DNA from: a virus
Strand: one strand, 5' to 3'
IMG/VR virus record: IMGVR_UViG_3300005613_000021
Span: 32,537 to 96,536 of that record
DNA length: 64,000 nt
In this document: piece by piece, positions 1,768-22,700 of the stretch
Numbering within the stretch: position 1 is the stretch's first letter
How the letters are laid out: each line of letters opens with the position of its first letter
Translations under genes and position numbers: made by a program
Notes under the pieces: model-generated
Database searches by the model: none
The model's input: only the letters and a program-made list of their open reading frames with translations
What the model was told of the DNA's origin: nothing

Positions 1768-4700
1768 ATGGCACAAGGCTATAATCTAACAGTACAATTG
1801 AATATTCAAGGTCCTAAAAACCTAAATAGCGTTGTTAATAACATTAACCAGAAACTACAAAATATACAAGCTACTGTTAATGTTAAAACTTCCCCTCAAA
1901 CAACGCAAGCCTTGAAAAACATAGCCAATGCTTCTAAAGGAGTTAAAAATAATGCCGATGATGCTGCTAATAGTATGGAAAAATTTGGCAAATCTGCTGG
2001 CCTCGCGATTAGGCGTTTTGGTGCCTTTACTGCTGCTACCGCTGGCTTCTATGCGGTTACTAGGGCTACGACACAATCGCTAGAAAAATTTATTGAGTAT
2101 GATAGACAACTTACTAGAATTGCTCAGGTGACTGGAACAGCTAAAGAAAGCTTAGGCAATCTCTCTAATACTATTACTCAGCTTTCTACTAGTTTAGGTG
2201 CTAGTAGTTCTGAATTGGCTAGGGTTTCGGTAATTCTTTCACAAGCTGGACTTTCAGCTGAACAAACAAGACAGGCTTTGGAGGCGTTAGCTTTAACTAC
2301 TTTGGCCCCAACTTTTAGCGATATTAATCAAACTGTCGAAGGTAGTATCGCTTTGATGAAACAGTTTGATATTAGCACCAAACAATTAGAAGCTTCTTTA
2401 GGCAGTATCAATGCTGTCGCTGGTCAGTTTGCTGTAGAAGCTGGTGATATTATTACAGCTATTCAGAGAACTGGTGGTGTATTTGCTGCTGCTAGTAATG
2501 GTGTGAGTCAGGGAGTAGATGCTCTTAACGAGTTTATTGCTGTTTTTACTAGCGTCAGAGCTACTACTCGTGAAAGTGCTGAAACAATTGCTACTGGCTT
2601 AAGAACTATTTTTACCCGTATTCAAAGAGAAGATACTCTTGATGCTCTTAAGGCTTTTGGAATAGAACTGACTGATCTAGAAGGAAAATTTGTTGGGCCA
2701 TTTCAAGCTATACAAAGATTATCAGAAGGGTTAAGAAGTTTAGATCCTAGAGATGTAAAGTTTAGTGGTCTAGTAGAAGAACTTGGTGGTTTCAGACAAG
2801 TTGGCAAAGTCATTCCTCTTATTCAACAATTTACCACAGCTCAACAAGCCCTTAATGCTGCACAACAAGGGTCTGGATCTCTGGCTCAAGACGCCGCCAT
2901 AGGTCAACAGTCTTTAGGTGTTCAAATATCTAAAGTACAACAAGAATTTGATGCTCTTATCAGGAGTATTGGTCAAACAGCAGAGTTTAGACAATTTATT
3001 CAACTTAGTCTTGATCTGGCTAGTGCATTAATACAAATAACAGATGCTGTTAAACCATTAATTCCAGCTCTTACTGCTTTAGGTGCGGTTGGACTTGCTA
3101 GAGGTATTCCTTCTATTGCTAGAGGATTCAAGAAGAGTATTGGAGCTACTGGATATAACAATGGAGGTGTTGTTACTGGTAGCTCTTTAAATTTTGCTGG
3201 TTCCTACAATAGTGGCGGTTTAATTGGAGGAAAGCCAGGAATTGATAAAAATATTATTCGTGCTTCTAAGGGTGAATACGTTATTCAAAAACCTGCAGTT
3301 GATGCTTTAGGAACGTCTTTTCTTGATAATTTACAAAAAAACAAACAAGTACCAGGGTATGTAACAGGAGGCTTAGTAGACTATCCCTCATCAAGAAGAT
3401 TTGTAAGAAGTAGTAACTTTACCTATGAGAAACCTCCAGGAGTTAGCATAACAGAATCCTTGCAAAACGAAACCCCATTAGCTTTTCAAAGATTTGATGC
3501 TGTTGATGTTGATATTAAAAATCAGGGATTTAATGGCAAGGCACTAGCTGAAAAAGTATCTAACAAAAATTCTGGTAAAACATATTTGAGAGCATTAGAG
3601 AGTGGGGACTATAGAACCAGAGGTATTGCTTTTGAAAATGTATTATACGACACTAAACAAGTTTCTTATAAGCCAGAAGGACGTAATGCCACCTCAAGAA
3701 TAGACAATATGAGAGGTTCAAATTTTGTAGAAATTAAAAGCGTACAAGAAAGAGTTCCTAATGAGGCAATATTAGATAAAACTATTGGTGCTATTTTTGC
3801 TTCTAGAGGTGGTATAGATGAAATGGTAATGCAAAGAGCTTCTAGGTCTGCAGTTACTAGTAAGAAAGATATTTTAGATGTTGGACAGGTTTCTGTGTTC
3901 TATGACACAACATCATTAAGAGACATTCAAAAAACAAAAAAAAACAAAGAGTTGACCTCATCTTTAAAATCTACAGCTGTTTCTAAAATTGGTAATATTA
4001 AATCTAGAAAATTGCCAAGAGCGTATACCGGAGGTAACCAAAAAGAAGGAGACATTAGAGTTACCAGAGGTGAATATGTAATCAACAAACAGGCTGCAGA
4101 ACAAATAGGAATAAATAGATTAAACGAACTTAACAACGCTCATAGAAACAATATGGCTGAAGACCTACCTAAATTTCATACTGGTGGAGCAATTGGTTCT
4201 ATTCCTGGATATAATACAGGTACTACAGTTGATAATGTTAGTCGGGATAGAGGTATCGGCAGTACTATCGGCCTAGTGTTTGCGTTACAAGGTGCTGCTA
4301 GTCTATTCTCCACAAGTATAGAAGAGGCAGCTTCTCAAGGGGCCGCAGAAATGGGGGCTGGTATACAGGGTGCTGTTTCTGGTATTAATCTTGGTATTGT
4401 TGGTGGAGAAATTGCAGGCTTTATTCCAGGCTTGTCCAAATTTTCTGGAGGGATAGGATTAGCTACCGCTGCTGTTGCTGGAACAGCTTCGGCATTTATA
4501 CAATCTAAAAATGCTGCTATTGATTTTGCAAATAAATTATCTAAACAGAGAATAGAAGATGCAACACAGAAAGTATCTTCTGCTCTTGACAAGCTAAGTA
4601 AAGAAGCAAATAATTTTAATGCTTTTAGACAAGCTGTTTCTGGAATAAGACAGTCCACTCAAGAAATTAGTTCTGTAAGAAGTAGACAAATTGAAAGTAA

Positions 4701-7700
4701 TAGATTGGGTTTTGCTAATATCCCAGAATACTTATTGGGAACTACAGCCACAGGAGAAAGAACTCAAGAACAAATAGCTGTCGGAACATCCCAAGAGACG
4801 CTCTCTGCACAAAGATCATTAGTATTAGAAATGAGAGGATTTAATGCTTATTTAAGCACTTTGGGAGGATATTTAGGAGATAATCAACAAGCACAAGAAA
4901 ATCTCGCTAATGCAATTAGAGGCATTAATGAAGTAAGAGCACAAGAAAGTGCTAGAGAGTTTGCGGGAGTGGCAGATTCAATTACTCAACTTGTAGAACA
5001 AAGACTAAAAGCAGGTATTGGTATTGATCAGATAATAGACAGTCAACAATTTAAATCTTTCAGCGAGGCTTTGGCAAGAGCAAATCCGCAAGTCGAAAAA
5101 TTTATTTTAAATACACAAGCAAATACATCATTATCAGCAGAAGAAAAAAAACAAAGAATAGATAGAGTAGTAGCTCAAAGAGCAGAAATAGAAATTATAC
5201 AAAGAACTGCAGCTTTTAGACAACAAATAGAGATAGATAATGCCGAAAAAATTGGTAGAAATTTAGAAACTATTTTGAGTAGAGTGTTCAATAGTTTTGA
5301 ACAAATATTTAATCGTACTGCTTTAGATATAGGAAGATCTTTTGATATAATAAATACAGACATTGCTGCGTTGTCTGGTAACGCCTCTATAGGTCTTGGA
5401 CAAGATAGAGGCTCTAATATTCTTTCTAATCCTTCAGCATATAGTAAACGAGAATTCAATTTGGTTGTCAGCGGACTTAAGCCCATACTGGGAGACCAGG
5501 CAGAAACAATAGCTGGCTTGGCTAGGGGTTCTGTTTCATTAGAAGCAGGAATAATATCTGCAATAAATAGAGTTGTAAAAGAAAATCCACAAGCTACTGA
5601 TACTGCTGTTGCAAGATTGGTAGGTCAAGAAATATCAAATCTGGTTACTGAATTAAATCTACCTCCAGATGTAGCAAGGACTTTATCAGATCAAATTAGC
5701 GCAGGTCTACAGAAATTAAGAAGTAAGGGTAAAGACCAAATAGGATTAGATTCCCAAGATGTCAGAGAAAGCGTATCTGGTTTCGCCAGCACAATAGACG
5801 CACTAAAGGGATCACTGAACACACTATTATCTGCACAAAAAATATATCAGTCAGGATTAGAACAATATACCAAGGTATTAAATAATATTACAGGAATTTT
5901 AGCACAAAGAAATCAGTATGTTTCAAAGAGTTTGGAAATTCTTGCTCAGGGAGCCATTAATCTGGACGAAGCTTTTGGTAGGATATATAGTGCTAGAGAT
6001 ATTAGCATACAACAAGAGAAAAGCATAGAAAGACAAACATTTGGTCTGTCAGATCCTGATGAAATTTTTAACAAAATTATAGATTTAAATTCTAGAAGAC
6101 AATTATTACAAACTAATTTACAGTCAGCACAAGATCAGGGGCCAGCTAGTTTTGCTCAGTTTAGAGACCTTAGTGTTGAGTTAGTTAACACCAATGTCGA
6201 ATTAAATAATATGCAGCAGGCTTTACAAACTCTTGCTGACAGTTCTAATGTAGCTCAAGCAGCACTTTCTGAAATATCTAGAGTTCAACAACAAAGACAG
6301 CAGCAAGCTGGATTTTTGGAAAGTTTGGTTTCTTCTACTCCAGAACAGATAACAGCTCTTAATCAGGCATATGCTGACTTACAAAGACTTCTTTCTGGCC
6401 AAAGTAATACTATTTATACAAGCATAGAAGCTCAAAGAACATACGCCCAAACATTGAGACAAACAAGAAGTACATTCCAAGCCCAAGAAGCTGCACAGGG
6501 AGTATTAGCACAAGAAAGAGGCAACGTAACGTCTTTAGTTAAAGAATTAGCTCCATTTCTTGGTTCTTCACAAGAAGCGAATAATTTAAGGGCAGAAGTT
6601 TTAGCAAGGCAAGTCAATCAATTGGGAATGTTAACTCCACAATTTTCTAGAATAATTGAGTCTATTAGAAATCCTGAAGGAGATCCACAGCTACAAGAAG
6701 CTATTAGAGTTTATAGAGAGGCCGTTACTGAGCAGTCTAGGGCAAATCAATTACTTGGGCAGATTCAAGCTATTAATGCTAGGATGGCTGAGCAAAATAG
6801 CGCACAAGCAGTGGTAAATGGTCTTGCTAAAACAGTTCTTACTGTGAACGTTAATAATGCTGGAGACATAGCAGCGGCCATTCAACCTGCTGTATTACCT
6901 CAACCAATAGTTCCTCAAGGAAGAGCTAGTGGCGGTGTTATATACGCAGCTGCTGGACAACAAGTAGAAATGAAGTCCAGAGGGACAGATACAGTACCGG
7001 CGATGTTAACACCTGGAGAATTTGTTGTTAATAGACAGGCAACAGCAAAGAACAGAGGATTATTAGAAAGTATTAATAGCGGCAAAACACAATACTATCA
7101 ATATGGAGGTTTTGTAAGCAATCTGTTTGATGCAAATCAACCCAGAGGAAAAACAGAAAAAGTTCCTGCCCTAGAACAATGGCAACAATTAGCTCAGGGA
7201 GTCAGAACCGCACCTAAACTTTTTACTGCTAGTAGTTTTGTTAATTTTGACAGAGCCCAAAACATTACAGTTGAAGACACTCTTCCTCAAACACAGGGCA
7301 ATTCAACCTTAAATGATATACAAGACTTAAAAACTTTTATATATAAACAATTTAAAAATGATTCAAATATTCTTCCAGGACGCGTTTCTGATATAGTGGT
7401 AGAAAAAGCAGGAAAATTTGATGCTAACTTACCTAGTACTGTCGCTGATTTTGGTACAGCTAGCAAAATTGCAAAAGCAGCCATAGAAATAAATCCAAAT
7501 ATAAAAAGCATAAAGGATTTTCCTGACTTTGGTTTCGGCATAGAAAGAAAAGTAGACACAGCTTCTCCTTTAGTTAGGCAAATATCTCAAAAAACAAATA
7601 TTCCTATACAAAATATTCTTGATTATATTGGGACCAGAAGTACAAGATATCCATATCTTGATAGCTTGATGCTTGGGGCCAGTCCAGAAGATTATATCAA

Positions 7701-10700
7701 TATATATCCACAATCTAAAGGAGCCGCATCAGCAACAGAAGTGAGTGCTATTAGGAGGGGTTTGTATGGTGTTGATACAAGAAACACCAATCTTTCACCA
7801 TCACAAAACTTAAACGAACAGACATATCCAGAATACAATAAAAAATTTAACAGCTTTAGATTGGTGAAACCTAATTTGAATGGTATTGATATAAATTCTT
7901 CTCCACCTACTAATGCGTTTGCAGATTCTTGGAATATTACTGGCAAGAACTATGGTCTATATTCATCTATAGGTCCGATACAAGCGGAACCATTTGGACC
8001 AAAGGTGACCTCTAAACCAAGAGATTTTATTAGACGTGGAAGCATAAGTATTAGCGGTAATGGTTCTAGCGGTGAAGTATTTGAAGGAACAAGAGTGATT
8101 GGAGATGATTTATTAAAAAGAAGTAAAAATATCTACGATAGATATATTGACACCAAAGAAATATTAAAAAATGGAGTCGCAGAAGATCCTGAAGTAGAAT
8201 CATTTATAAAAGAGTTAGAGTCCTTGTATAGTGGAGAAACACCATTTTCACCATTAAATGCTAAATTTTTTAATGATAAAAGAACTCCTATTATGGGTTT
8301 AAGTTCCTCTGTCTATAGAAGTTTTAACAGATTGGCGCAAGAAGACAAATTATCGGCTGCGATTCGTTGGCCTCTTGGTTTGAATGGTAATTTTAAAACA
8401 CTTGGCTTAATAAGAAACGAAGAACAAATAGATCGCTTGAAATCTCAAACAGATTTAATTAAAAAAGAGATAGCCGATGAAGAAAAGTCTAAATTTTCTA
8501 TAGTCAATAAAACTGCTAAAATACCTTTTAAGGCTGTTACCCCAATAGATAAAAGACTGGCTAATTTTCCTGCTTTTACAAATATTGATTTTAGCGTTCC
8601 ATATAAAGAATATTCCGGTAATCTGTATGACGAAATACAAGGTTTATATGACGATAAAAAAAATAAAGCGATAATTCCTAATTATGAAAATTATAGAAGT
8701 TTCTTAAAGGGTGACTCCAATAATGATCTGCTATATGGAAATTTACAGGCTTACTTAGGCAATATATTTAATAACTTAAATAATAATAGATCCGAAATCT
8801 CAGAATATTTATTTTCAGATAATGCCAAGCTAAATACTAAATTGTTTAGGCTTGCCTCTGTAGGATATAAAGGATCATCTAAGCCTAACATTTATTCTTT
8901 TGGTACAAAAGGATTATTTACTAGAGACTTTGCTGCTACAGATAATTTAGCTAGAGACATCGATAAAAAGAAAGACAAATTATTAAAACCAGCACCATTT
9001 GAAAAACCTATAGAACAGAAAGCTGAAGACGAATTTGCGGTAAAACAATATAATGATATGTTTACAGATACTAGGGGTTATTTTGGTAGAGCCCCAAGTT
9101 TCAGGCAATATGTTAGAACTGGTGGAGCAGGTATAGCTAGAGATATCCAAGAAGCAAAAAAATATTCTCAAGGTCTATCTGGACAATTCTTAGTTAGTAC
9201 AAATAATGGCAATCTTGCATTGCCAATTAGAGCTATGTCATCAGGTTTTTCTGAAGCATTTGCTAGTGTTGGAACAGGCAAACTTTCTCCTTGGACTGAT
9301 AGAATTGGAAGAGTAAATACGGCAGCTGCTGCTGCAAGCTTTGGTCAGTCATATTGGCTGCAGAATTTTGCTGGTGCTGAGGGCGTTGACCTAGAACAAC
9401 AATCAGACCCTAATGTTGTGGAAAGAGCACAGAGGGCTATCGAAGGAAATCCTAAAACTCCAACTACTATCAAAGAGTGGTTTGATTTGTATATGGATCC
9501 ATATCTGAAATATAACCAAAGAGGCATTAGAACTAAAGGATTATCTAATATATATCGCAGCATGGTGGATCAGTCATATTATGAAAAGAAGAGGAGAGGA
9601 CCCGTCCCTAGTGCTCAAGAAGCGGCAGCATATTTTACTAATCTTGGATCATGGTATGATGGAATCAGAAGGTGGCCTGGACAAGATGGAATAGTTGAAG
9701 ATCTTGATGGAGAAAAAGATATCAAAGAAAGAGCAAGATATCTTTATAGGAATAGTAAAAACTTTACAGGGGGTCTTTATAATACAGCAAATAGATCACA
9801 TTTAAGTTTGGGTGGAGGTATTTATGGGGGTTTGCCTACATTCAACCAGATATCGCTGATTAATGGAGTTAATCCACGAATAATGCAGCAGGTGATGAAT
9901 GAGGGTGTTGCTGCACAGGCACAGTTACTATCGCGGGGAGGAGAAGTTGACCCACTATATCTTGCAGAAGGTGGGCCGGTATTACTTGATAAGGCATTAA
10001 AACAACAGGCCATATCTCAACAGAAACAAACATATAACCCATTTGCTGGTCCGTCTTCTGAAGACAGATATAGAGAAGAATTACTACTCCAAAGACAAAG
10101 ACGAGAAGAACAAATAGCAGAGTTAAGAGCATCTACTCCATTTACTAAAGCAATACAAAGAGCACCTAAAGATGCATTTGGCAACACAACAATAGCACCA
10201 AATGCTACTATTAATGATAGTATTAGAAATATACCGGGATTTGGTTTAGACATTCTAGGAACGTTTCCAGGAATTGTAGGATCATTGGTTACTGGACCAG
10301 GAGCAGCAGCAGAACAACTTTCTAATGCTGTAACTGGTGGAGATAGTCAGTTTATGTCTGACATGTTTAGATATAATTTAAGCACAGGTACTGCACTAGG
10401 ACCAAGATTAGCATCTGGTATTTATTCTGAAGATATGATGTCAATGCCAGGATCTTATATTGCTGGAGGTAGTCAAGAAGATATAGTATCTCAAATGCAG
10501 CCAGCATCAAGGGTGGCGGCTACCGCTTTAGACTTTGTAAGTCCAGATATTGGGGATATCCCTAGAGGTATTAAAACTGCTAGTGCTTTAGGTTCTCTTT
10601 TAGGTTTTGTAAAGAAAGCGCCGATACCCAAAATTACTATGCCAGACAGACTTGGTGGATATGTTGCTGATTTAGAATCTGTCTTAAAAACCAATAAAGG

Positions 10701-13638
10701 CTTATCATTAGAAGATCAGACTTCTTTGGCTCAAGATATATTTACTCTTAGAAGTAAAATGAAAACAAGAGGTAGAGAGGGAGCCAGGGGGGCTGATCCA
10801 GAAATAGATGCTATTTTAAAGAAATATGAAACAAAGCCAGAAATTGAAGCTGGAGATGTTGGAGGGGCTGGAAAAACACCAGCTATTGATCCACAAGAAC
10901 TTACTTCAACAGGCAGATACAAGTTAGACACAACAATAGCAGCCCCCAAAAAAGAAATGGCAGCTCAAACTGGCAAAGCAGAACCACCAGCAGAAATTAA
11001 AGAAATTCTTGATCAAGGTAGGCAATTTTACGAATCAAGGAATACAACACCCACAAAAGACACATCATTAAACGATGCCATTGTAACACAAAGGGCTGAG
11101 GCAATGAGTCCTGAGCTAGAAGAATCAATGCGTCTCGGCCAAGAATTTGCCAAAGAAAGGGCAGCAAGGCAAACTGAGAATGCTAGCATAGTAGCCGAGG
11201 ATGCGAATAAAGCAGCCGCACTTAAACAGCAAAGAGAGGAACAAGCTGCACTGAAACAGAAACAAGATGCGTCAGCAGCTGCACTTAAACAACAAACAGA
11301 CAGGGAACTATTGCAGTTTGCTAAAGAGCAAAAAATTAACCCTAGAATTCCTCCTGGAGTTGATAAAAGAAGATTTGATACTTGGTACAGAGACAGAAAT
11401 AATCCAGCATATAAAGACGTTAAGAATGCTGTCATTAATGATGTCCTGGCTAGAGCAGAGTTCAGACAAGCACAAATGGGCGAAGTGCCGAATAGAATAC
11501 CTGGAGTAGATAGAGATTTATTTGAATATGACTTTGGTGATGTTGTTAAAATAGGTCCTGAACGTACTGGAACTGTAGGTCTTCAAGCTAGTGCAAATGA
11601 GAAAGAATATGCAAAAATTGCTAAAATAATAGCTGAAAAGCAGGGTAGGCCTTTTACTATTATTCAAGCTAGAGATATGATTGCTGAATCGGTAGGTTTA
11701 TTGCATTCTGATATGCCTGATTTAGAGCAGTTAGCGAAAAGGGGATTATTCCCATCAAGAGCAGAAGTTGGAACAACATTGGCTCCTAACCAAGAGCTAG
11801 GCAAGCCATTACCATCAAGTCCGCTAGAGGTGTTTGAGCAGATGTTTCCTGAATATAAAGCCACAGGAGGAATAGTACAACAACCAAAATATTTAGCTAC
11901 AGGTGGATCTACCAGTGTGGCTATGACACCAAGAGGAACCGACACTGTTCCAGCGATGCTTACTCCTGGCGAGTTTGTGGTGAATAGAGAATCCGCCAAA
12001 AATAACATGGGTCTGCTTAAGGCTATTAATCGTAGAAAGGGTGGTATAACTCCTACTTATTTACAACAGGGTGGAGAATTAACAAAAGATCAGCAAAATT
12101 TAGTAAATATGATGGGAATTCCACAATTTAGACTAGCAGACGGAATTAATCCTAGACTACCAGAAGAAGTAGCTATGGCCAAAAACATAGCTAGCAATAC
12201 ACTCAAACAAGAAAATACTCAAAGAGAAATGATGGGAGATACCCGTTTAGCTGCTCCTCAAATAGAAGAAATAGTTAGTAATTTCTTTAATAACGCAAAC
12301 TTATCTCCAAACAACGAATACGGAGAAGTTGGTTTAGACAGCTTAATTGGTGGTTCTAGATCTGCTATTGGTAGAGAACTAGATATGCAAACAGTATTTA
12401 AATACGGAATAAGTAATCTTAGCGATGCCCTATCTACAAGTAGAGGTAGTCCTTTAGGAGAAGTATTATCTGATCAAGACAGATTCACAAGAGATCAGAT
12501 TCAAGCTTTGTTGGAACGTACAGGAATTATGAAAAAATATGTTGCTCCAACATTTAATCTAAAAAATGGAGGAAAGGTAGAATATTTAAAAGGCGGAGGA
12601 CAGCTAGTAGATTACAGTCCTAAGGGTACTGATACTGTTCCTGCTATGCTAACTCCTGGCGAGTTTGTTGTTAATCGTGAAGCAACTCAAAAGAATCTTG
12701 GACTATTAAAAGCTATCAATAAAAGTAGTGGTGGTGTGGTTCGTAACGGTGTGTTATATGCTGCTAACGGAGGTCCAACAATAGATGATACTCGTGCTGA
12801 AATTGCTGGACAAAGAGCTTTTGATAATTTGTGGAGCGCTATAACTTCATTAGCTTCGGATATTGCAGGATTAATGATACCATCTACAGAAGTAACACCA
12901 GCCGCCACGGCCACCTCAAGAACAGAAGAGATGATCAGACCATCTGTACAATCTACAGACAATGATTGTTGTGATAGGATCATATCAGCTTTAAGAGAAG
13001 GTTCTGTGTCAGATATTCAGCCCCCACCTATGGATTTTGGTATGGTTAATCAACCACAGACACCTATGACAGACGATGGCACTTCTACCAGTATGTCATC
13101 TATTGCTTCTGATATTTTTTCAGCAATAAGAGAGAGTTTTTCTCAAACTTCAATCTCAACATCAACACCAACAACACCAGTCGAATCTGCTACAAAAGCA
13201 GATGCTCCCAGTATTGATTTTAGTCCATTTACCCAAAGTGTAGCAGATTTTAGCAGTGCATCCGCACCACTAACTTCTGCTATACAAACACTGTCACAAG
13301 TCGATTTTGGTGTAATAAACAATGGAGCAGCTAGCCTATTATCTAGTTCTATAGCTCTTGGAGGATCTTTTGGTAGATTTAACGAGTCTGTCAATCAATT
13401 TTCGCAAAAAACTAATGATTTAATTTCGGCTATAAATGGAATGAGCTTAGATGGTACTATTACTGTGGGAGGCAATATTTCTGTGCAACCAATGACTGTA
13501 AACATTGCTGGATTAGAAGCAATCGAAGCAAGATTACAGGGTTTTGGTGAGTATATAAGCCAAGCCTTGGCAGCAGGCTTAGCTCAAGCTAATCCAGGAT
13601 TTGATACGTCCGCAATTACAGTGAGCACTAGTATTTAA
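1768..13638 (+). CDS. Giant tape measure protein with additional cargo-like regions
   Basis: N-terminal TP901-type tape measure core (FIEYDRQLTRIAQVTG..., Ala/Gln/Ser-rich helical, IATGLRTIFTRI), Gly/Ala hydrophobic segments, repeated GTDTVPAMLTPGEFVVNR modules; located ahead of tail genes. Confidence 0.9.
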   Translation: MAQGYNLTVQLNIQGPKNLNSVVNNINQKLQNIQATVNVKTSPQTTQALKNIANASKGVKNNADDAANSMEKFGKSAGLAIRRFGAFTAATAGFYAVTRATTQSLEKFIEYDRQLTRIAQVTGTAKESLGNLSNTITQLSTSLGASSSELARVSVILSQAGLSAEQTRQALEALALTTLAPTFSDINQTVEGSIALMKQFDISTKQLEASLGSINAVAGQFAVEAGDIITAIQRTGGVFAAASNGVSQGVDALNEFIAVFTSVRATTRESAETIATGLRTIFTRIQREDTLDALKAFGIELTDLEGKFVGPFQAIQRLSEGLRSLDPRDVKFSGLVEELGGFRQVGKVIPLIQQFTTAQQALNAAQQGSGSLAQDAAIGQQSLGVQISKVQQEFDALIRSIGQTAEFRQFIQLSLDLASALIQITDAVKPLIPALTALGAVGLARGIPSIARGFKKSIGATGYNNGGVVTGSSLNFAGSYNSGGLIGGKPGIDKNIIRASKGEYVIQKPAVDALGTSFLDNLQKNKQVPGYVTGGLVDYPSSRRFVRSSNFTYEKPPGVSITESLQNETPLAFQRFDAVDVDIKNQGFNGKALAEKVSNKNSGKTYLRALESGDYRTRGIAFENVLYDTKQVSYKPEGRNATSRIDNMRGSNFVEIKSVQERVPNEAILDKTIGAIFASRGGIDEMVMQRASRSAVTSKKDILDVGQVSVFYDTTSLRDIQKTKKNKELTSSLKSTAVSKIGNIKSRKLPRAYTGGNQKEGDIRVTRGEYVINKQAAEQIGINRLNELNNAHRNNMAEDLPKFHTGGAIGSIPGYNTGTTVDNVSRDRGIGSTIGLVFALQGAASLFSTSIEEAASQGAAEMGAGIQGAVSGINLGIVGGEIAGFIPGLSKFSGGIGLATAAVAGTASAFIQSKNAAIDFANKLSKQRIEDATQKVSSALDKLSKEANNFNAFRQAVSGIRQSTQEISSVRSRQIESNRLGFANIPEYLLGTTATGERTQEQIAVGTSQETLSAQRSLVLEMRGFNAYLSTLGGYLGDNQQAQENLANAIRGINEVRAQESAREFAGVADSITQLVEQRLKAGIGIDQIIDSQQFKSFSEALARANPQVEKFILNTQANTSLSAEEKKQRIDRVVAQRAEIEIIQRTAAFRQQIEIDNAEKIGRNLETILSRVFNSFEQIFNRTALDIGRSFDIINTDIAALSGNASIGLGQDRGSNILSNPSAYSKREFNLVVSGLKPILGDQAETIAGLARGSVSLEAGIISAINRVVKENPQATDTAVARLVGQEISNLVTELNLPPDVARTLSDQISAGLQKLRSKGKDQIGLDSQDVRESVSGFASTIDALKGSLNTLLSAQKIYQSGLEQYTKVLNNITGILAQRNQYVSKSLEILAQGAINLDEAFGRIYSARDISIQQEKSIERQTFGLSDPDEIFNKIIDLNSRRQLLQTNLQSAQDQGPASFAQFRDLSVELVNTNVELNNMQQALQTLADSSNVAQAALSEISRVQQQRQQQAGFLESLVSSTPEQITALNQAYADLQRLLSGQSNTIYTSIEAQRTYAQTLRQTRSTFQAQEAAQGVLAQERGNVTSLVKELAPFLGSSQEANNLRAEVLARQVNQLGMLTPQFSRIIESIRNPEGDPQLQEAIRVYREAVTEQSRANQLLGQIQAINARMAEQNSAQAVVNGLAKTVLTVNVNNAGDIAAAIQPAVLPQPIVPQGRASGGVIYAAAGQQVEMKSRGTDTVPAMLTPGEFVVNRQATAKNRGLLESINSGKTQYYQYGGFVSNLFDANQPRGKTEKVPALEQWQQLAQGVRTAPKLFTASSFVNFDRAQNITVEDTLPQTQGNSTLNDIQDLKTFIYKQFKNDSNILPGRVSDIVVEKAGKFDANLPSTVADFGTASKIAKAAIEINPNIKSIKDFPDFGFGIERKVDTASPLVRQISQKTNIPIQNILDYIGTRSTRYPYLDSLMLGASPEDYINIYPQSKGAASATEVSAIRRGLYGVDTRNTNLSPSQNLNEQTYPEYNKKFNSFRLVKPNLNGIDINSSPPTNAFADSWNITGKNYGLYSSIGPIQAEPFGPKVTSKPRDFIRRGSISISGNGSSGEVFEGTRVIGDDLLKRSKNIYDRYIDTKEILKNGVAEDPEVESFIKELESLYSGETPFSPLNAKFFNDKRTPIMGLSSSVYRSFNRLAQEDKLSAAIRWPLGLNGNFKTLGLIRNEEQIDRLKSQTDLIKKEIADEEKSKFSIVNKTAKIPFKAVTPIDKRLANFPAFTNIDFSVPYKEYSGNLYDEIQGLYDDKKNKAIIPNYENYRSFLKGDSNNDLLYGNLQAYLGNIFNNLNNNRSEISEYLFSDNAKLNTKLFRLASVGYKGSSKPNIYSFGTKGLFTRDFAATDNLARDIDKKKDKLLKPAPFEKPIEQKAEDEFAVKQYNDMFTDTRGYFGRAPSFRQYVRTGGAGIARDIQEAKKYSQGLSGQFLVSTNNGNLALPIRAMSSGFSEAFASVGTGKLSPWTDRIGRVNTAAAAASFGQSYWLQNFAGAEGVDLEQQSDPNVVERAQRAIEGNPKTPTTIKEWFDLYMDPYLKYNQRGIRTKGLSNIYRSMVDQSYYEKKRRGPVPSAQEAAAYFTNLGSWYDGIRRWPGQDGIVEDLDGEKDIKERARYLYRNSKNFTGGLYNTANRSHLSLGGGIYGGLPTFNQISLINGVNPRIMQQVMNEGVAAQAQLLSRGGEVDPLYLAEGGPVLLDKALKQQAISQQKQTYNPFAGPSSEDRYREELLLQRQRREEQIAELRASTPFTKAIQRAPKDAFGNTTIAPNATINDSIRNIPGFGLDILGTFPGIVGSLVTGPGAAAEQLSNAVTGGDSQFMSDMFRYNLSTGTALGPRLASGIYSEDMMSMPGSYIAGGSQEDIVSQMQPASRVAATALDFVSPDIGDIPRGIKTASALGSLLGFVKKAPIPKITMPDRLGGYVADLESVLKTNKGLSLEDQTSLAQDIFTLRSKMKTRGREGARGADPEIDAILKKYETKPEIEAGDVGGAGKTPAIDPQELTSTGRYKLDTTIAAPKKEMAAQTGKAEPPAEIKEILDQGRQFYESRNTTPTKDTSLNDAIVTQRAEAMSPELEESMRLGQEFAKERAARQTENASIVAEDANKAAALKQQREEQAALKQKQDASAAALKQQTDRELLQFAKEQKINPRIPPGVDKRRFDTWYRDRNNPAYKDVKNAVINDVLARAEFRQAQMGEVPNRIPGVDRDLFEYDFGDVVKIGPERTGTVGLQASANEKEYAKIAKIIAEKQGRPFTIIQARDMIAESVGLLHSDMPDLEQLAKRGLFPSRAEVGTTLAPNQELGKPLPSSPLEVFEQMFPEYKATGGIVQQPKYLATGGSTSVAMTPRGTDTVPAMLTPGEFVVNRESAKNNMGLLKAINRRKGGITPTYLQQGGELTKDQQNLVNMMGIPQFRLADGINPRLPEEVAMAKNIASNTLKQENTQREMMGDTRLAAPQIEEIVSNFFNNANLSPNNEYGEVGLDSLIGGSRSAIGRELDMQTVFKYGISNLSDALSTSRGSPLGEVLSDQDRFTRDQIQALLERTGIMKKYVAPTFNLKNGGKVEYLKGGGQLVDYSPKGTDTVPAMLTPGEFVVNREATQKNLGLLKAINKSSGGVVRNGVLYAANGGPTIDDTRAEIAGQRAFDNLWSAITSLASDIAGLMIPSTEVTPAATATSRTEEMIRPSVQSTDNDCCDRIISALREGSVSDIQPPPMDFGMVNQPQTPMTDDGTSTSMSSIASDIFSAIRESFSQTSISTSTPTTPVESATKADAPSIDFSPFTQSVADFSSASAPLTSAIQTLSQVDFGVINNGAASLLSSSIALGGSFGRFNESVNQFSQKTNDLISAINGMSLDGTITVGGNISVQPMTVNIAGLEAIEARLQGFGEYISQALAAGLAQANPGFDTSAITVSTSI
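6982..12678 (+). repeat. Three identical 18-aa repeats GTDTVPAMLTPGEFVVNR in the TMP (6982-7035, 11935-11988, 12625-12678), plus two diverged copies with GEYV cores near 3271 and 4069
   Basis: Read directly from the translation; the DNA copies differ at many synonymous positions. Confidence 0.9.
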
Positions 13639-13661
13639 CACTATCATAGTAGGTCTTAATT

Positions 13662-16600
13662 ATGTCTAATAAATTTTTTAATTACAGATACAGAGCAACT
13701 GCACCAGCAGCAGCATATGGTACAGCAAATTTCAATGTAAATGATAGTGCTGGTTATAATACCATCCATTCTCTGGTTGGCACCACCGCTGGATCTCAAC
13801 AAAGATTCACTTATAGTTTGACAGTAGCGAATCAGTCTAGCGTATATGAATACGGAATTGGATATTTGACCAGTCTTGGTGGAGGGTTATATCAATTTAC
13901 AAGAGAGCAATCTGTTTCTTCTAGTCAAGGAGACAATAGTAAAATAAATATTTCGTTAGCATACGGAAATGTAACAATCGATGTTATTGCACCAAATCCT
14001 AGCTATACGAATTATAAAAGATTAAATAGTAATTCAACACTATCAAATATAAATAGCACTTATTTTGTTGATGCTACTGGAGACATTACTTTATCTTTAC
14101 CAGCTATTGATATTGATTCTGTAATTATTGGCATAGCCTTAACTTCTTTGAGTGGATCGGAAAACGAAAGAACAGATGCTGTTACTCTTGATGCTAATGG
14201 ATCAAATACTATAAATGGCGGAGCTACCTATGCCTTAAGTAAGAAAAATGATTTTGTAAGAATTATATCTGATATAGACAACAATAATTGGATAGTATTA
14301 GACCCTATACAAGATACAGCTTCTTCGAGCGGTCCAAATGGGGCTATTCAATTATCTGACAATGGTGTTCTTGGTCATAATAATGGATTTTTCTTTAATG
14401 ACGATGCATTATTCGTGGGTGGAGATGATGCAGTATCGGCTGTTGTTCAAGTTGGTGGAGAATTAATGAACACAATCTTTAATCTTCAGTCTGGAGACCT
14501 AGATTTTACAATCAATACCAACGGTATCGGCAATACTTTTTTTGTTGATGGGTCAACTAATAATGTCGGAATTAATACTAACACCCCATTAGATTTGCTC
14601 AACATAAATACCGAAGGAGTGGAAGGTATTACTATTAGTACTTCTACTAGTGGATCTATTCCTACTATTGCTTTTGTTAATAATGATCCAGATTTTACTG
14701 AAGGTTTGGACATTGGCAGAATTGATTTTGTAGGTTCTAATACGGCAGAAGAAAATATTACTTACGCTAGAGTCATAGCAGAAGCATCAGATGAGACCGA
14801 TGGTTCAGAGCAAGGATTACTAAAATTTTTAGTAGATAACAACGGGACTTTACAGAATGTTGCTCTATTAAGCTATGAAGATATTCAAATTGGTCCAAAT
14901 AATTCTATATCTGGTGGTATTGTTATAGGTTCTAATACTACCAATAAAGGAGATAATGTATGTATTGGTTATTACAATACTAATTGTGGTGTTAGTAGTA
15001 TTAATATTGGACATCAAAATACTATAGAAAGCGGTTCGTATGCTGGTGCTATCGGATCAGCTCATACAGTAACAGGTTCTCATGTTTGGTTATTTGGTGG
15101 TTCTGGAGCAGACATTACTGGCAATAATAGTACTTTTTTATTGTCTAACGATAATAATTATATACAAGTTAAACATGATCAGCAAAAAAGAGTAGGAATC
15201 TATGTGGATTCTACAGGAACCGATTTCAGTATTGTTAATACCAGAATATCTTCAACAGGGACACAGCATCTGCAAAACTTCTTGTTTAGAAACAATGCTG
15301 GAGATCAAATTACAGGAATTTCTCAAGGTATCATTGTTGATGATCCTTCACAGTCTGGTGAATATACAAGCTTTTTTTTAAAGGTTTTAGAGTCCGGCAA
15401 CTTAGTTGATGTATTAGATATATCTGCTGATTATGTTAGTATTTCAAATGTATCTGGTTTATCAAACACTGTGTTTATAGGAAGACTATTAGAGATAAGC
15501 GGTACAGGAGCAAATAATACTATTATTGGTGTTTCTAATGTTCTTTCTGATAATAGTGGTAACAATACTATTGTGGGATATAACAATGAGTTAGCGACTT
15601 CTGGTAATCATCATGTTGTTACTTTAGGAAGCAATAATACTTCTGATGATAACTATACTACAACTGTTGGTGTTTCTAATCGAAACAGCGGATTGTATTC
15701 TGCTGTTGTTGGATATAATAATGGTGTTTATGGGGAAAATATTTCTATTGTTGGTGTTAATAACGATGTGTCTGGAAATAATTCTGCTGTTCTTGGTTAT
15801 CAAAATAATATAGATAATATAAATTGTTATGTATTTGGACAGGGCAATTCTTCTGTATATTCAGGAGTTACAATATTAGGAAACGACATTACTGCAACAG
15901 GACACGAACATACATACATAAAAAATACCACTGTTGTTATTACAGGAGACTATATAGCTCTTGATGCTACATCAGACATAAACTTTAAGTCTAGACCTAT
16001 TTTGGAAGGTAGTGGTTATGTTTTGGTTAGTGGAGATAGTGTTAGCTATTTAGTCAATGATTCTAATTATGTTTCTAGTGGAGATAATATTAGCGAATTA
16101 GTTAACGATTCAGGATATATTAATAGTCAGGCCAACGTAACCGGCATTTCTTATACTTCAGGAATTTCGTCTGGAATATTAGTCCTAAGCCATCACACAG
16201 GAACAGTAACCGGCATATTAAGTGGCGTTGCCCATAGTGGTCAAAATATTAGTATTTTTGCTAATGATGTGGGATATATTACTGGAGAAGCATATGTTAC
16301 TGGTATTAATTATGATGGTTCAGGAGAGTTGGTTTTAAGTCATCATAGTGGAACTGTTACTGGAATTTTAATAGATGTTGTACATAGTGGGGACAACATT
16401 ACTAATTTAAATAATGATGCTCTGTATATTACAAGTAGTGATTTTGCTAAACCTAAATTAAAATTCGATGTTTCTGCAACAGGAGATAATACTTTTATAT
16501 TCAGTGGTGCTGGCACCGATGGTGTTGGAAACGACGAAAACCCAACTCTGTATTTGTACAAAGGATTTAATTATGATTTTGACATAAACGTATCGAGTTC

Positions 16601-18293: not shown

Positions 18294-19796
18294 ATGATAT
18301 CTGGTATAGGAGGCATATCTTTTGTGCCTCATGCAATGATAGATATTTCTCCTCAGTATTTTTATTATGGCGATGATGTTATAGGAGGATTTTTAAACTT
18401 AGAAATACAGGGTACACATCATGCTGAAGATAGTGATTCATATACTTCTTTTATAGAATCTGTTGTTGGTCTTATCGATAGTTGTGCCACTATTAATATG
18501 TCAAATGAATGTACTCCTGAAAGCACTATAGATAAATTAGATAATTCTGTTGGAGTTGTGAGAGATGCTAGAGTTAGTCCTGTTGGGGGATTAGATATAA
18601 ATTACAACATAATTGTAGAATGTTCAAAGGATAGTGACAAAAACAAATTAATAGTGAATAATAGTGATATCGATTTTGAAACCATACTTGGAAATGATAT
18701 GATAGTTAGAGCATATTCTGAATCAATAGTGGTCAATTATGCTGATACTAGCACTTTCTCTATTAATGATAAAAAACTAGTCAAAAATGCTGGCAAGTTT
18801 ACTATACAAATAGAAGTGTCTGCTTATGATAATGATCAGTGCGATACTAATGATTTAAATTTTGAATTACTTATGCAATTTTTAGAAAATAGAGTAGATA
18901 CTATTGTTACTAGTCCTAGTGAGGTTAATATTAATATACCTTCTACTTTTGTTACTTGTGCTACGAATATAAAAAAAACAACAAAGAAAACTAGCGCTAG
19001 TATCGATTTTGACTTACATATACTTCCTCAAAACGATACCAAGGCTATTGTAGAATTTAGTGAAACTTTTGAATCTGATCAGCTAAAAGGAGGTAAAAGT
19101 ATTACAAAAATAAAAGGATCTATATTAGGAGTTGATAGTAGCCAGACTGTTTTATATCCAAACTATGATGGTTATGATAATGCTTCAGCCGCTTATAATG
19201 ATATTAGGGAATATTTTGTTAGTGGTATTACAGATCTTTTTGTATCTAATTGTTCCAATGGTAGTGGAACAGGTATGCCCAATATAGGAGATACATGCTA
19301 TCAATTGACCAGTACTAGGTTGTCTGAATTTCCATCAGCCAATAAAATAGATTTTGAAATGACCTATAAAGATACAGAGACTTGTGATTTATTGGGTTAT
19401 AAAATATCTAGTCAATATGAAGAAAGACCTTCCGTAAGTGGTAGGGCAGAACATTTTGCTCCTGGTAGACAGGCTAGTTATAAACCTTTAGTATATGCTA
19501 GTCAAGCTACATCAGCCCCTAAATATAAATTAACAATAAAAGGAGAATTGCCTAGCAGTTGTTTACAACAATCTGTTGGTAAAAGCAATACAGTGCTTAA
19601 AAATAATAGTTTGTTTGCTAATAGTGTCAACATGGACAGTCTTATTACAGAATTAAAGTCAGCTGTTAGCGGAGAGCTTTCTGATCAAAAAGATATTTGG
19701 TCATTAACTGGTGGAAATATAATGCAAATTAATAAAGTAGAAACAGAAGGTAGATACACATATAGTATTACAGAGGAATACATAGAATGTCAATAG
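18294..19796 (+). CDS. Putative tail/baseplate structural protein
   Basis: 500-aa ORF of similar size and composition to its upstream neighbour; possibly a distant paralog. Confidence 0.55.
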   Translation: MISGIGGISFVPHAMIDISPQYFYYGDDVIGGFLNLEIQGTHHAEDSDSYTSFIESVVGLIDSCATINMSNECTPESTIDKLDNSVGVVRDARVSPVGGLDINYNIIVECSKDSDKNKLIVNNSDIDFETILGNDMIVRAYSESIVVNYADTSTFSINDKKLVKNAGKFTIQIEVSAYDNDQCDTNDLNFELLMQFLENRVDTIVTSPSEVNINIPSTFVTCATNIKKTTKKTSASIDFDLHILPQNDTKAIVEFSETFESDQLKGGKSITKIKGSILGVDSSQTVLYPNYDGYDNASAAYNDIREYFVSGITDLFVSNCSNGSGTGMPNIGDTCYQLTSTRLSEFPSANKIDFEMTYKDTETCDLLGYKISSQYEERPSVSGRAEHFAPGRQASYKPLVYASQATSAPKYKLTIKGELPSSCLQQSVGKSNTVLKNNSLFANSVNMDSLITELKSAVSGELSDQKDIWSLTGGNIMQINKVETEGRYTYSITEEYIECQ

Positions 19797-22700
19797 ATAA
19801 AAGTAAAGAACTATACGACAAAATATTAAGTGAATTAGAGTTATTTTCTGATGAATTAAGTTTTGATGCTATGGCTACAAAACCAGCCATAATAAATCAG
19901 TATAATTTACTTTCTAATATTCCAGTAAACCTTAGTGTATCAAGTGGGAATCATGTTGTTTTAGGTCATAGAATTCCCATGAGCTATATTGATATAAATA
20001 GTGTTAGTGATTGTGATTCTGATTGTAATATACTTAGTTTTTCTGGTATTAACGCTAGTGGAGATATAACATACGCAACAGATAATATTATATCAATTAA
20101 AATAGAAAAGGATATTAGTTCATTCGCTGCCGGATCTACTATCAGTGGTAGTGATGAAATTAGTTTTACTAGCACAGGAGTAACTCCCGGTTCTTGTTCG
20201 GGATTTTCTGATTACAGCATATCTGATCAAATATCGGTGGATAATGCTTTAATTTCTTTCGTAACAGGAATAGGTTCAGAAATACCTTTTAGTGGAGGTA
20301 GCGGTAATGTTGAATCATCTTATTTTGAAAGATTGGGTTCTGGAACATTTATTATAGCCCCACCATTATCATCACAAGATGATTATTTTTATATCTATAC
20401 AACTGGAACTTCATCATATCGTGGTGTTGCTCATCCTTCAGAAACTGGAATAAAACAAGTAGTAGGAGGATCGTCAGAATGGAGTGCATTATCAAATAAT
20501 TTTATTTTATGTCTTTATAATTCTGATCCTTCTTCTATTTTTAAATATAATGTAGAACAAGATAATTGGACTGCTATAAATCCTTTTAATACTGGCATTA
20601 ATACTGAACTTACTAATATTATAAAACTAGAGAATGATGCAGGCTATTATTTAGTATTAGGCACTGGTACTGGTGAATATGTTTTATATAATAGTATCTT
20701 TGATTTTGCAACAGGCATACTAGATTCGACCGATGAAGGATACAAAATACTACCTGCAAACATAGCTTTGATTCCTAGTTATGTAACTACTGGATGTCAA
20801 TGGCAGGTTGATAGTTCTCAAGACATGAGACTAGGTGACAGTGAATATCATATATTTCTTACTGACTATGATTATAGTGGTAACTTAACCTATCCATTAA
20901 AACTAAAAAATATTAATTTTTCTCCGATAATAGAAAATGGTGATTTTGTATTGTCTGGAAATATTGTCAGCGGAACTACTTATCTTAGTAATTATTTAAA
21001 TTATCGTACAGATATTATTAATGTAGCAGATAAACTTGTAATATCTCTTTCTAGCACAGGTACTAATAATAGTCAACTTGTTATATGGGACAATAGCACA
21101 CTAACAACAGACAGCATCTATTCTTCTGAGAAAAAAAATAGATTGGTCAGATTAGTGAATGACCAAATACTATGGTGCTCATCTAGTAATAGTGGTATTT
21201 CGACAGTAATAGATCCGTATGAGATAAAAGAGTACCCGTTTCCTGTTCCACTAACAGGCAATATTAGTGTTGCTACTAGCTGTCCATTAGAATTTAGAAC
21301 ATTGATGCTGGATGCTGCTGGCACAAACGCATATATTGTTAATGATTTAGACAGAACTTACGAAACCCTATCTTTTACAGGCTCTTTGTCTATGGGTAGG
21401 TATCATGATATTATTGTGCTAGATCAGCTACCAAACAGCTCTGATCATTCTCATAACTTTTATTTGATGCCTGATGAAACTTATTCTAATGATTTTCCTA
21501 AAGCAAACCTTATTACCATATCTACAACAACCACCTCTTTTACCGGCATCACTATTGATGGTGATTTTACTATAGATGAAACAACTACTACTGGCTTAAT
21601 TGAGATAGGTAGATTTTTTGTTCCATCAGGAGCGGATGATGAATTTGTTGGGACTTATACTTTTGGTATGGACGATGCTTTGGGCAATAGTTCTATTTTT
21701 GATTTAACCTTTAACAATGGTAGTGGTATTATTTATGTAAAATCTGGAATATATTTAGATTATGAAGATCAAAATTTTTATTATGGATATATAACTGGAG
21801 TAGACCTTTATGTTGATAGGGGTAATTCTAATAATAATTTTACCCTAAGATTACTACCAGTTAATGAAGCCCCTACAGGAATAGTATTTGATCCCCCAAA
21901 TAGTGGTGGTTACAATATTAATATTCCTGTTGATGAAGATAAACTTGTTGCAACTTTTGATGTAAAAGATCCAGATACTGTATTTACCGGTATTTTTGAC
22001 AGATTAAAACAATTTAATAATGTTATAGGTGTTTCAGGTGTGGACGCTGATATCTTTAATGTTAATTTTAATGATATTTTACAAGAAGGTAGTATATTTG
22101 TAAAGAATGGGACAGCTTTTGATATTGATAGCAAAGACTTGTATGAATTAACTTTATACGCTGGTCAGAGTGGGTCTGGCTTTAGCACATCTGGAAATTG
22201 GACTCTATACCTAACAGACAATCCGCCAATATCTATAGATATAACACCATCTCAAACTGGTCTTCCAGAAAATTTTATTCCTCCACAGACAGGTTTTAAG
22301 CTATCTGATTTTATTGTTCAAGATAATGATACTAACAGAAATAATTTTGTAAGTCTTATTGGTAATGACGCCAGCTATTTTAGTATCGATTACGATTTTG
22401 CTAGTGGCACAGGCTCTTTAGTATTAGAGCCAGACGTTGTACTAGATTATGAGACAAAACCTACAGTTACTGCAACTTTAGTGGCAGGAAATCTACCTGG
22501 TATATATTCTGCAACTAGAACATTTACAATTAATGTACAAGATGTGGAATTTGAAATATCAGGAATTACAGCAACACCAGATATATTTTATCTTTATGAA
22601 GACGTAGACACTTCTACTGGTAGTATTAAACTTTGTGACTTAAAATGGACAGATCCTGATTTAGATCTTAATCCTGGTGCCGATATGGTTGTTTTTGATT

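Follow-up and report, generated by a model that had tools for sequence, protein, structure and literature searches.

A giant tape measure gene with five copies of one module

The window analysed here is a 64,000-nucleotide (nt) stretch of a 96.5-kb IMG/VR virus contig (IMGVR_UViG_3300005613_000021; CheckV completeness 66%). Positions 1768–13638 of the plus strand form a single open reading frame (ORF) of 3,956 codons plus stop. The phage is an uncultured siphophage, and this ORF encodes its tail tape measure protein (TMP). The protein contains a PF10145 (PhageMin_Tail) domain at residues 134–328 (nt 2167–2751; E 7.5e-22, 78.6 bits against a 33.2-bit cut-off), and residues 17–462 are matched by several tape-measure PHROGs (phrog_28, E 1e-32). 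It is a member of a large environmental family of giant TMPs comprising at least 978 proteins of 2,175–6,923 residues. Our family comparisons rest on 241 fetched relatives, and the coverage profile on the 120 best of them. The TMP is composed of conserved blocks, five modules of about 75 residues and variable inserts, arranged as follows.

1768–13638 (+): TMP gene; single ORF with PF10145, tape-measure PHROGs and 978 giant relatives
1768–3141 (+): block s0, residues 1–458, conserved helical block at the N-terminus that contains the PF10145 domain; common to 213/241 relatives, helix-prone fraction 0.66
3142–3393 (+): module 1, residues 459–542, diverged (GEYV); profile E 1.5e-14
3394–4017 (+): insert s1, residues 543–750, PD-(D/E)xK nuclease-like by motif, model and structure search; core residues 578–729 (nt 3499–3954)
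4018–4209 (+): module 2, residues 751–814, diverged (GEYV), N-flank shortened; profile E 6.7e-15
4210–6909 (+): block s2, residues 815–1714, conserved helix-prone tape; common to 180/241 relatives, helix-prone fraction 0.64
6910–7131 (+): module 3, residues 1715–1788, identical core at nt 6982–7035; profile E 3e-32
7132–11844 (+): insert s3, residues 1789–3359 (1,571 residues), non-helical, aromatic-rich, nearly unique; helix-prone fraction 0.24
9916–9990 (+): relic of a sixth module without its core (LSRGG ... LAEGG), residues 2717–2741, inside s3; full module at the same place in relative P0004
11845–12096 (+): module 4, residues 3360–3443, identical core at nt 11935–11988; profile E 1.3e-27
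12097–12546 (+): insert s4, residues 3444–3593, unique; no related segment among the 241 proteins
12547–12795 (+): module 5, residues 3594–3676, identical core at nt 12625–12678; profile E 2.5e-29
12796–13635 (+): C-terminal tail s5, residues 3677–3956, presumed hub-binding end; common to 16 relatives, at their C-termini

The presence of five GG...GE(F/Y)V modules in one TMP was anticipated by an earlier note made from the DNA alone. With a profile made from 632 module copies of relatives, exactly five are detected (E 1e-14 to 3e-32) and no sixth full module in the TMP, even at E 100. Each module consists of Gly-Gly flanks, a nearly invariant D-T-V-P-A-M-L-T-P-G-E-F-V strand and a short helical hairpin; the conserved profile positions read [KR]-A-x-G-G-[VIM]-[IV]-Y in the N-flank and [YF]-x-x-G-G-x-V in the C-flank. 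The diverged GEYV cores of modules 1 and 2 lie at residues 502 and 768 (nt 3271 and 4069), inside the two intervals (~3205–3330 and ~4021–4140) where diverged copies had been expected. When these two modules are modelled in context, AlphaFold2 places the GE[FY]V segment in a short strand that is followed by two helices.

Modules 3, 4 and 5 share an identical 18-residue core, GTDTVPAMLTPGEFVVNR, at residues 1739, 3390 and 3620 (nt 6982, 11935 and 12625), written in differing codons. Pairs of core copies have 6–9 of 18 codons in common, where independent synonymous draws under this gene's usage would give 8.6. The number of identical codons is thus close to random expectation and the synonymous sites are saturated; the peptide has therefore been kept identical by selection on the protein and not by recent duplication, as the earlier note had argued. 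Over their full length these three copies are 51–54% identical in protein and 56–57% in DNA, and the longest exact nucleotide run common to any pair of modules is 17 nt. The core is ~90% conserved across hundreds of copies in relatives. When the first 25 kb of the window are compared with 50,697 phage records, the sole nucleotide match covers positions 12631–12669 within the module 5 core, which share 38 of 39 nt (97%) with the unrelated Marine virus AG-345-O18 (MH319758.1).

Gly-Gly pairs are concentrated in the modules, with 16 in 439 module residues (3.0 expected) versus 19 in the 3,517 others (24 expected), and family-wide they occur at 3.8 per 100 residues in modules versus 0.8 elsewhere. 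All 13 of the xxGG motifs that had been thought to bracket the modules do flank them; none marks a separate junction, since all fall inside module envelopes and Gly-Gly elsewhere is not above expectation. The further pair LSRGG/LAEGG (residues 2724/2735) is present as described, but comparison with P0004, where a complete module occupies the corresponding position, indicates that it is a module after loss of its ~45-residue core and not a junction of another kind. Similar core-less Gly-Gly pairs recur in relatives.

The module extends well beyond this family. With a profile of the five copies, the search and copy count across TMPs that the earlier note proposed yields 13,007 matching clusters among 1.84 billion representatives and up to ten modules per protein, in proteins of 7,800 residues; neither Pfam nor NCBIfam has a model for it. 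BLAST places the module in annotated TMPs of Gordonia, Brevundimonas, Nodularia, Ralstonia, Burkholderia and Rhizobium phages, and the organisms named for module 3 include no Thermus phage. Mycobacteriophage Douge gp16 contains two modules, outside its resolved part, and Pseudomonas phage JBD30 gp46 contains one (residues 1015–1089). A PDB-wide profile search locates a single module in lambda gpH (residues 732–785, E 0.005), near the C-terminus, where the earlier note had placed it. Literature searches returned no description of the module, although literature coverage is incomplete and this is not proof of absence.

All 241 fetched relatives contain several modules, the 120 closest having 3–8 each, and copy number rises with protein length (r 0.72). 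The median gap between modules is 870 residues. The distance from the last module to the C-terminus has a family median of 141 residues and is 280 residues in the window TMP. The modules lie in one frame, without a stop between first and last, in 70 of 71 IMG/VR loci. In one IMG/VR relative (L013:3305–16185) the TMP frame is split into three overlapping frames (3305–12100, 12048–14474 and 14458–16185), the last of which retains a module 135 residues from its end; this break may stem from a sequencing error or a frameshift, or the gene may really be split.

Conserved blocks and enzyme-like inserts

The modules separate units of different kinds: two conserved helix-prone blocks and a set of non-helical inserts. 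Residues 1–460 and ~850–1790 are common to nearly all of the 120 best relatives, with block s0 covered by 103–120 of them, residues 550–800 by ~30 and residues 1800–3300 by 0–7. Most of the C-terminal half has no counterpart in relatives, yet the modules themselves are covered by nearly all. The split into helical and compositionally different segments that had been read from the sequence holds by a crude helix-propensity window, with a helix-prone fraction of 0.64–0.66 for residues 1–458 and 815–1714 versus 0.24 for residues 1789–3359. Family segments of at least 400 residues are bimodal in helix propensity and about half of all inter-module residues fall in non-helix-prone segments, a pattern of which the window TMP is typical. 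Insert s3 is richer in aromatic residues than the helix-prone blocks s0 and s2, forms a singleton in segment clustering and has no shorter stand-alone homologues that we could find. Searches of the modules and of every insert against Pfam, NCBIfam, PHROGs and PDB sequences returned only PF10145 and TMP PHROGs, and an ESM Atlas search of residues 1789–2720 gave scores of 0.82 at most, under the level of a lead. Precomputed Pfam labels in giant relatives (P0101, P0016, P0023, P0030, P0069–P0075, P0027 and P0121) include staphylococcal nuclease (PF00565), EF-hands, SHD1 (PF03983) and PF16581.

The best-defined insert is s1, between modules 1 and 2. Nineteen homologues of residues 539–734 share the invariant motifs RG..FE..L, R.D, E.KS, K and G......D, and in the window TMP the motif residues are E623, D646, E655, K657 and K671. 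An AlphaFold2 model of residues 440–830 (391 residues) has a predicted local distance difference test (pLDDT) score of 70–94 across residues 578–729, which are modelled as an α/β fold. In this model the glutamate lies on a helix (176–189, model numbering), and the aspartate and the ExK motif lie on or beside consecutive strands (208–210 and 213–218). A wide structure search (VIA; 48,161 PDB representatives) returned mostly PD-(D/E)xK nucleases. The best match is the VRR_NUC domain of FAN1 (Z 4.5, root-mean-square deviation 4.7 Å, 82 aligned residues), followed by a CdiA-CT DNase (Z 3.6), Card1 (3.6) and a Cas4-family protein (3.4); cap-snatching endonucleases and many restriction enzymes are also among the matches. 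Insert s1 is therefore probably a PD-(D/E)xK domain, and it may have nuclease activity.

A hidden sixth module within s1 was considered and rejected. The iterated s1 profile that pointed to it was contaminated by a second copy in relative P0008, and the clean module profile finds none. The P0008 copy (residues 3067–3257) is a putative second, diverged s1-type segment with a full module at the place of the nuclease-like core; its resemblance to s1 may reflect homology or only the alignment.

In some relatives the slot between modules 1 and 2 appears to hold an ADP-ribosyltransferase-like domain, additional to or instead of s1, an assignment that we make with moderate confidence from sequence matches. 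The domain was recognized in an IMG/VR relative (L004:3896–6385) as an ADP-ribosyltransferase exoenzyme domain (PF03496; 25.4 bits, cut-off 23.4). Among the 241 relatives, 29 contain it; 25 of its 31 copies occupy the module 1–2 slot, often ending right at module 2, and some relatives have the transferase-like and nuclease-like domains together in that slot. Its STS and ExE motifs are conserved in the 29 sequences. In L004 a core-less Gly-Gly pair (YNLGG...FASGG) immediately precedes it. The swapping between close relatives that the earlier note proposed as a test is not supported: some relatives have a differing enzyme-like domain in the module 1–2 slot, but the closest relatives are collinear with the window TMP part of the way, P0004 to residue 2698 and P0002 and P0003 to about residue 2150.

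Related systems and tail length

Lambda gpH is among the closest known systems. It matures to gpH* and gpHC (Tsui and Hendrix 1983, as cited in PMC12617516), a ~14-kDa C-terminal fragment being removed in a Gly-rich zone, with the exact site and enzyme unidentified; residues ~690–817 are unresolved in virions (PMC12617516). The gpH module adjoins this cleavage zone on the downstream side and lies upstream of the hub-binding C-terminus. Lambda gpH and the window TMP share the same module, and both belong to the TMPs, which are expelled before the DNA. The two proteins differ in scale: gpH has one module in 853 residues and no inserts, whereas the window TMP has five and a relic, with ~2,000 non-helical residues.

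In JBD30, residues 1022–1066 are predicted to form a hook of two helices and a β-hairpin that anchors the TMP in the baseplate, and this anchoring is proposed to follow a cut at residue 1066, both docking and cleavage being speculative (PMC11445458). The predicted hook coincides with the module that we find at residues 1015–1089. T5 pb2 is cut after R1127, and the residues that precede the cut dock in the hub in its opened state (PMC10038345). The sequence at this cut, R/AEGGMMY (the slash marking the cut), resembles a module flank, but T5 pb2 has no significant module and was rejected as a module carrier (E 0.2; 33 of 200 shuffles score as well).

A giant TMP with a working enzyme is known from Thermus phage P23-45, whose gp96, a TMP of 5,002 residues, has a functional virion RNA polymerase fused to it (PMC10770324). 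Like the window TMP it is giant, and it carries its enzyme into the host; it differs in having a single N-terminal polymerase, a domain of another type than s1. TMPs with embedded cell-wall hydrolase motifs, T5 pb2C and that of mycobacteriophage TM4 (cited in PMC12617516), also place an enzyme inside the TMP that acts at entry. Their substrate is peptidoglycan, whereas the recognizable insert of the window TMP is nuclease-like and relatives have a transferase-like one. Polyvalent proteins (Iyer et al. 2017, PMC5512222) are giants that are delivered with several conflict enzymes, nucleases and ADP-ribosyltransferases among them, joined in one chain. They are packaged in the head or delivered by conjugation, typically with an embedded metallopeptidase, whereas no peptidase domain was found in the window TMP; of the polyvalent-type combination the window TMP has one recognizable domain (s1), and relatives combine s1-type and transferase-like domains in one slot. 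Iyer et al. (PMC5512222) make no mention of tape measures. We found no literature description of nuclease or transferase inserts carried by TMPs, or of TMP polyvalent proteins, although coverage was incomplete and this is not proof of absence.

The relation between tail length and TMP composition can be examined in Nodularia phage vB_NpeS-2AV2 (L076:5983–16197, KU230356.1). Its 3,404-residue TMP contains two adjacent modules at residues 982–1130, and the N-terminal 1,200 residues are non-helical. The tail is listed at 795 nm (PMC6293099 Table 1), which corresponds to 2.3 Å per TMP residue, and the chain as one full helix would span 511 nm. It therefore seems that the non-helical parts add ruler length, so that the comparison of tail length with helical-only length proposed in the earlier note does not single out the inserts as passengers. 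A sum of 1.5 Å for each helix-prone residue and 3.3 Å for every other comes to 803 nm, one data point from a crude measure. By the same reckoning the tail of the window phage would be ~0.6–1.0 µm long; its TMP as a full helix would give 593 nm.

Interpretation and alternatives

The usual view of a tape measure protein is that of a ruler that also opens a channel. For the window TMP we lean towards a reading in which a conserved chassis, old TMP-specific joint modules and variable inserts together make up a protein that also delivers those inserts as enzymes to the host through the tail. The chassis would comprise the N-terminal PF10145 block, the ~900-residue helix-prone block and the C-terminal tail, punctuated by the modules. 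The whole chain would lie in the tail lumen, the chassis helical and the inserts largely extended; at infection it would be expelled ahead of the DNA, carrying the inserts into the host, where they would fold as ready-made enzymes. The modules could be flexible hinges that bind a partner, either by docking to the hub or tube or by pairing one chain with another, and possibly also sites where the chain is cut. By analogy with the published P23-45 TMP–RNA polymerase, it is plausible that the tail may carry enzymes into the host. Of the earlier proposal that the module is a joint for interchangeable effectors, this retains a joint that sets off at least one enzyme-like unit here, with a further or another such domain in that slot in some relatives; it does not retain a joint at the DNA level.

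Several observations weigh against an enzyme-delivering TMP. The fold matches of s1 have low Z-scores (at most 4.5), all under the caution line of Z 8. Foldseek with the 391-residue model found nothing significant at E 0.001 or better. In the closest relatives the s1 domain has diverged and the ExK lysine is replaced (E-V-R); activity of s1 may therefore not be required. The transferase assignment depends on one Pfam match barely over its cut-off together with the motifs. Two other carriers of that domain gave no Pfam match in whole-protein scans, and profile matches to PDB transferases (ExoT, iota toxin Ia and Lmo0066) reach only E 0.03–0.05. Inserts s3 and s4 (~1,700 residues) have no domain recognizable in Pfam, PHROG or PDB sequence searches. 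The module modelled alone with a 150-sequence alignment has a pLDDT of 60, too poor for a fold search. The 2AV2 tail, finally, suggests that inserts lie stretched out along the tube and contribute to ruler length, and so are not mere passengers, which is compatible with their ejection and later folding.

Many of the same observations fit a protein that is only a very long ruler, an explanation that we consider doubtful. The modules would be remnants of an ancient duplication of lambda gpH-shaped units, each a tape with a C-terminal module, the non-helical stretches would serve as extended spacer, and the enzyme-like folds would be decayed or incidental. The median gap between modules is close to an ordinary TMP length (853 residues in lambda gpH), and the 795-nm tail of 2AV2 agrees with the helix-plus-extended sum for its TMP. 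One module has lost its core without breaking the gene, and the replaced s1 lysine and the lack of a detectable domain in s3 and s4 point the same way. A spacer, however, would not need a core that is identical three times despite saturated synonymous sites and ~90% conserved in relatives. Nor does this explanation sit well with an s1 that keeps its E, D, ExK and K in 19 homologues and has a confident globular model, or with a transferase-like domain that keeps STS and ExE in 29 sequences, and P23-45 already provides a proven case of an enzyme that is fused to a TMP and works after ejection (PMC10770324).

It is unlikely, in our estimate, that the TMP is a true polyprotein, cut in the Gly-Gly flank of each module by itself or by a host or tail protease and releasing about six proteins serially. 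Lambda gpH is cut in its Gly-rich zone at ~690–710, just upstream of the module (PMC12617516), and the T5 pb2 cut after R1127 (PMC10038345) resembles the N-flank consensus; T5, however, lacks a significant module, and of the other two sites that of lambda is unmapped and that of JBD30 is only a prediction. A lysine or arginine directly precedes the flank in four of the five modules of the window TMP, a position that is only ~36% conserved as K/R in the family. Core-less Gly-Gly pairs stand at domain boundaries in relatives, as before the L004 transferase-like domain, but the modules are held in one frame without intervening stop in nearly all related loci. Among candidate proteases, the 96.5-kb record, 66% complete, contains no C39, C48, S78, ClpP, JAB or NlpC/P60 peptidase, nor any match to the Gly-Gly cysteine protease families PF03412 or PF02902. 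The TMP and its segments match no peptidase family in Pfam (E up to 10) or NCBIfam.

A related but more specific proposal is that the module is a self-contained cut-and-dock element, in which the Gly-Gly flank is cleaved after tail assembly, as beside the one module of lambda, and the core then fixes the end so formed within the tail. This would turn the TMP into an ordered train of separately released proteins, with the nuclease-like insert of the first slot and s3 and s4 as cargo, and phages would re-equip the train by exchanging units between joints. We regard this as improbable at present. If true, it would supply a defined sequence context for the unmapped lambda gpH cleavage.

That the modules are DNA-level recombination joints, providing homology for exchange of the segments between them, is very improbable: the sole nucleotide match of the first 25 kb does fall on the module 5 core and segment families do occupy differing slots in different relatives, but shared runs of at most 17 nt at 56–57% DNA identity make such joints unlikely within the gene, conservation is at the protein level with randomized codons, the closest relatives are collinear across modules 1–3, and no breakpoint was mapped to a module, so that this part of the earlier note finds little support.

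If the enzyme-delivering TMP is correct, ready-made enzymes would be delivered through the tail lumen as well as from the head, and a motif common to lambda, JBD30 and many actinophage TMPs, for which Pfam and NCBIfam have no model, would gain a function. The joints would also mark places where passenger domains could perhaps be swapped in engineered laboratory phages. The position of the module beside the lambda gpH cleavage zone, where site and catalyst are unidentified after 40 years, would make that question testable by mutation of a defined element.

The setting of the gene may be that of a tail region. No family match was found for the ORFs upstream. On the 3' side lie large probable tail genes, including one for a 1,037-residue protein similar to a baseplate/fibre connector PHROG (E 4e-11). 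Its neighbour at 19787–25609 encodes a 1,940-residue protein with a cadherin domain (PF00028, E 2e-8), and the two are probably adhesin-like fibre proteins.

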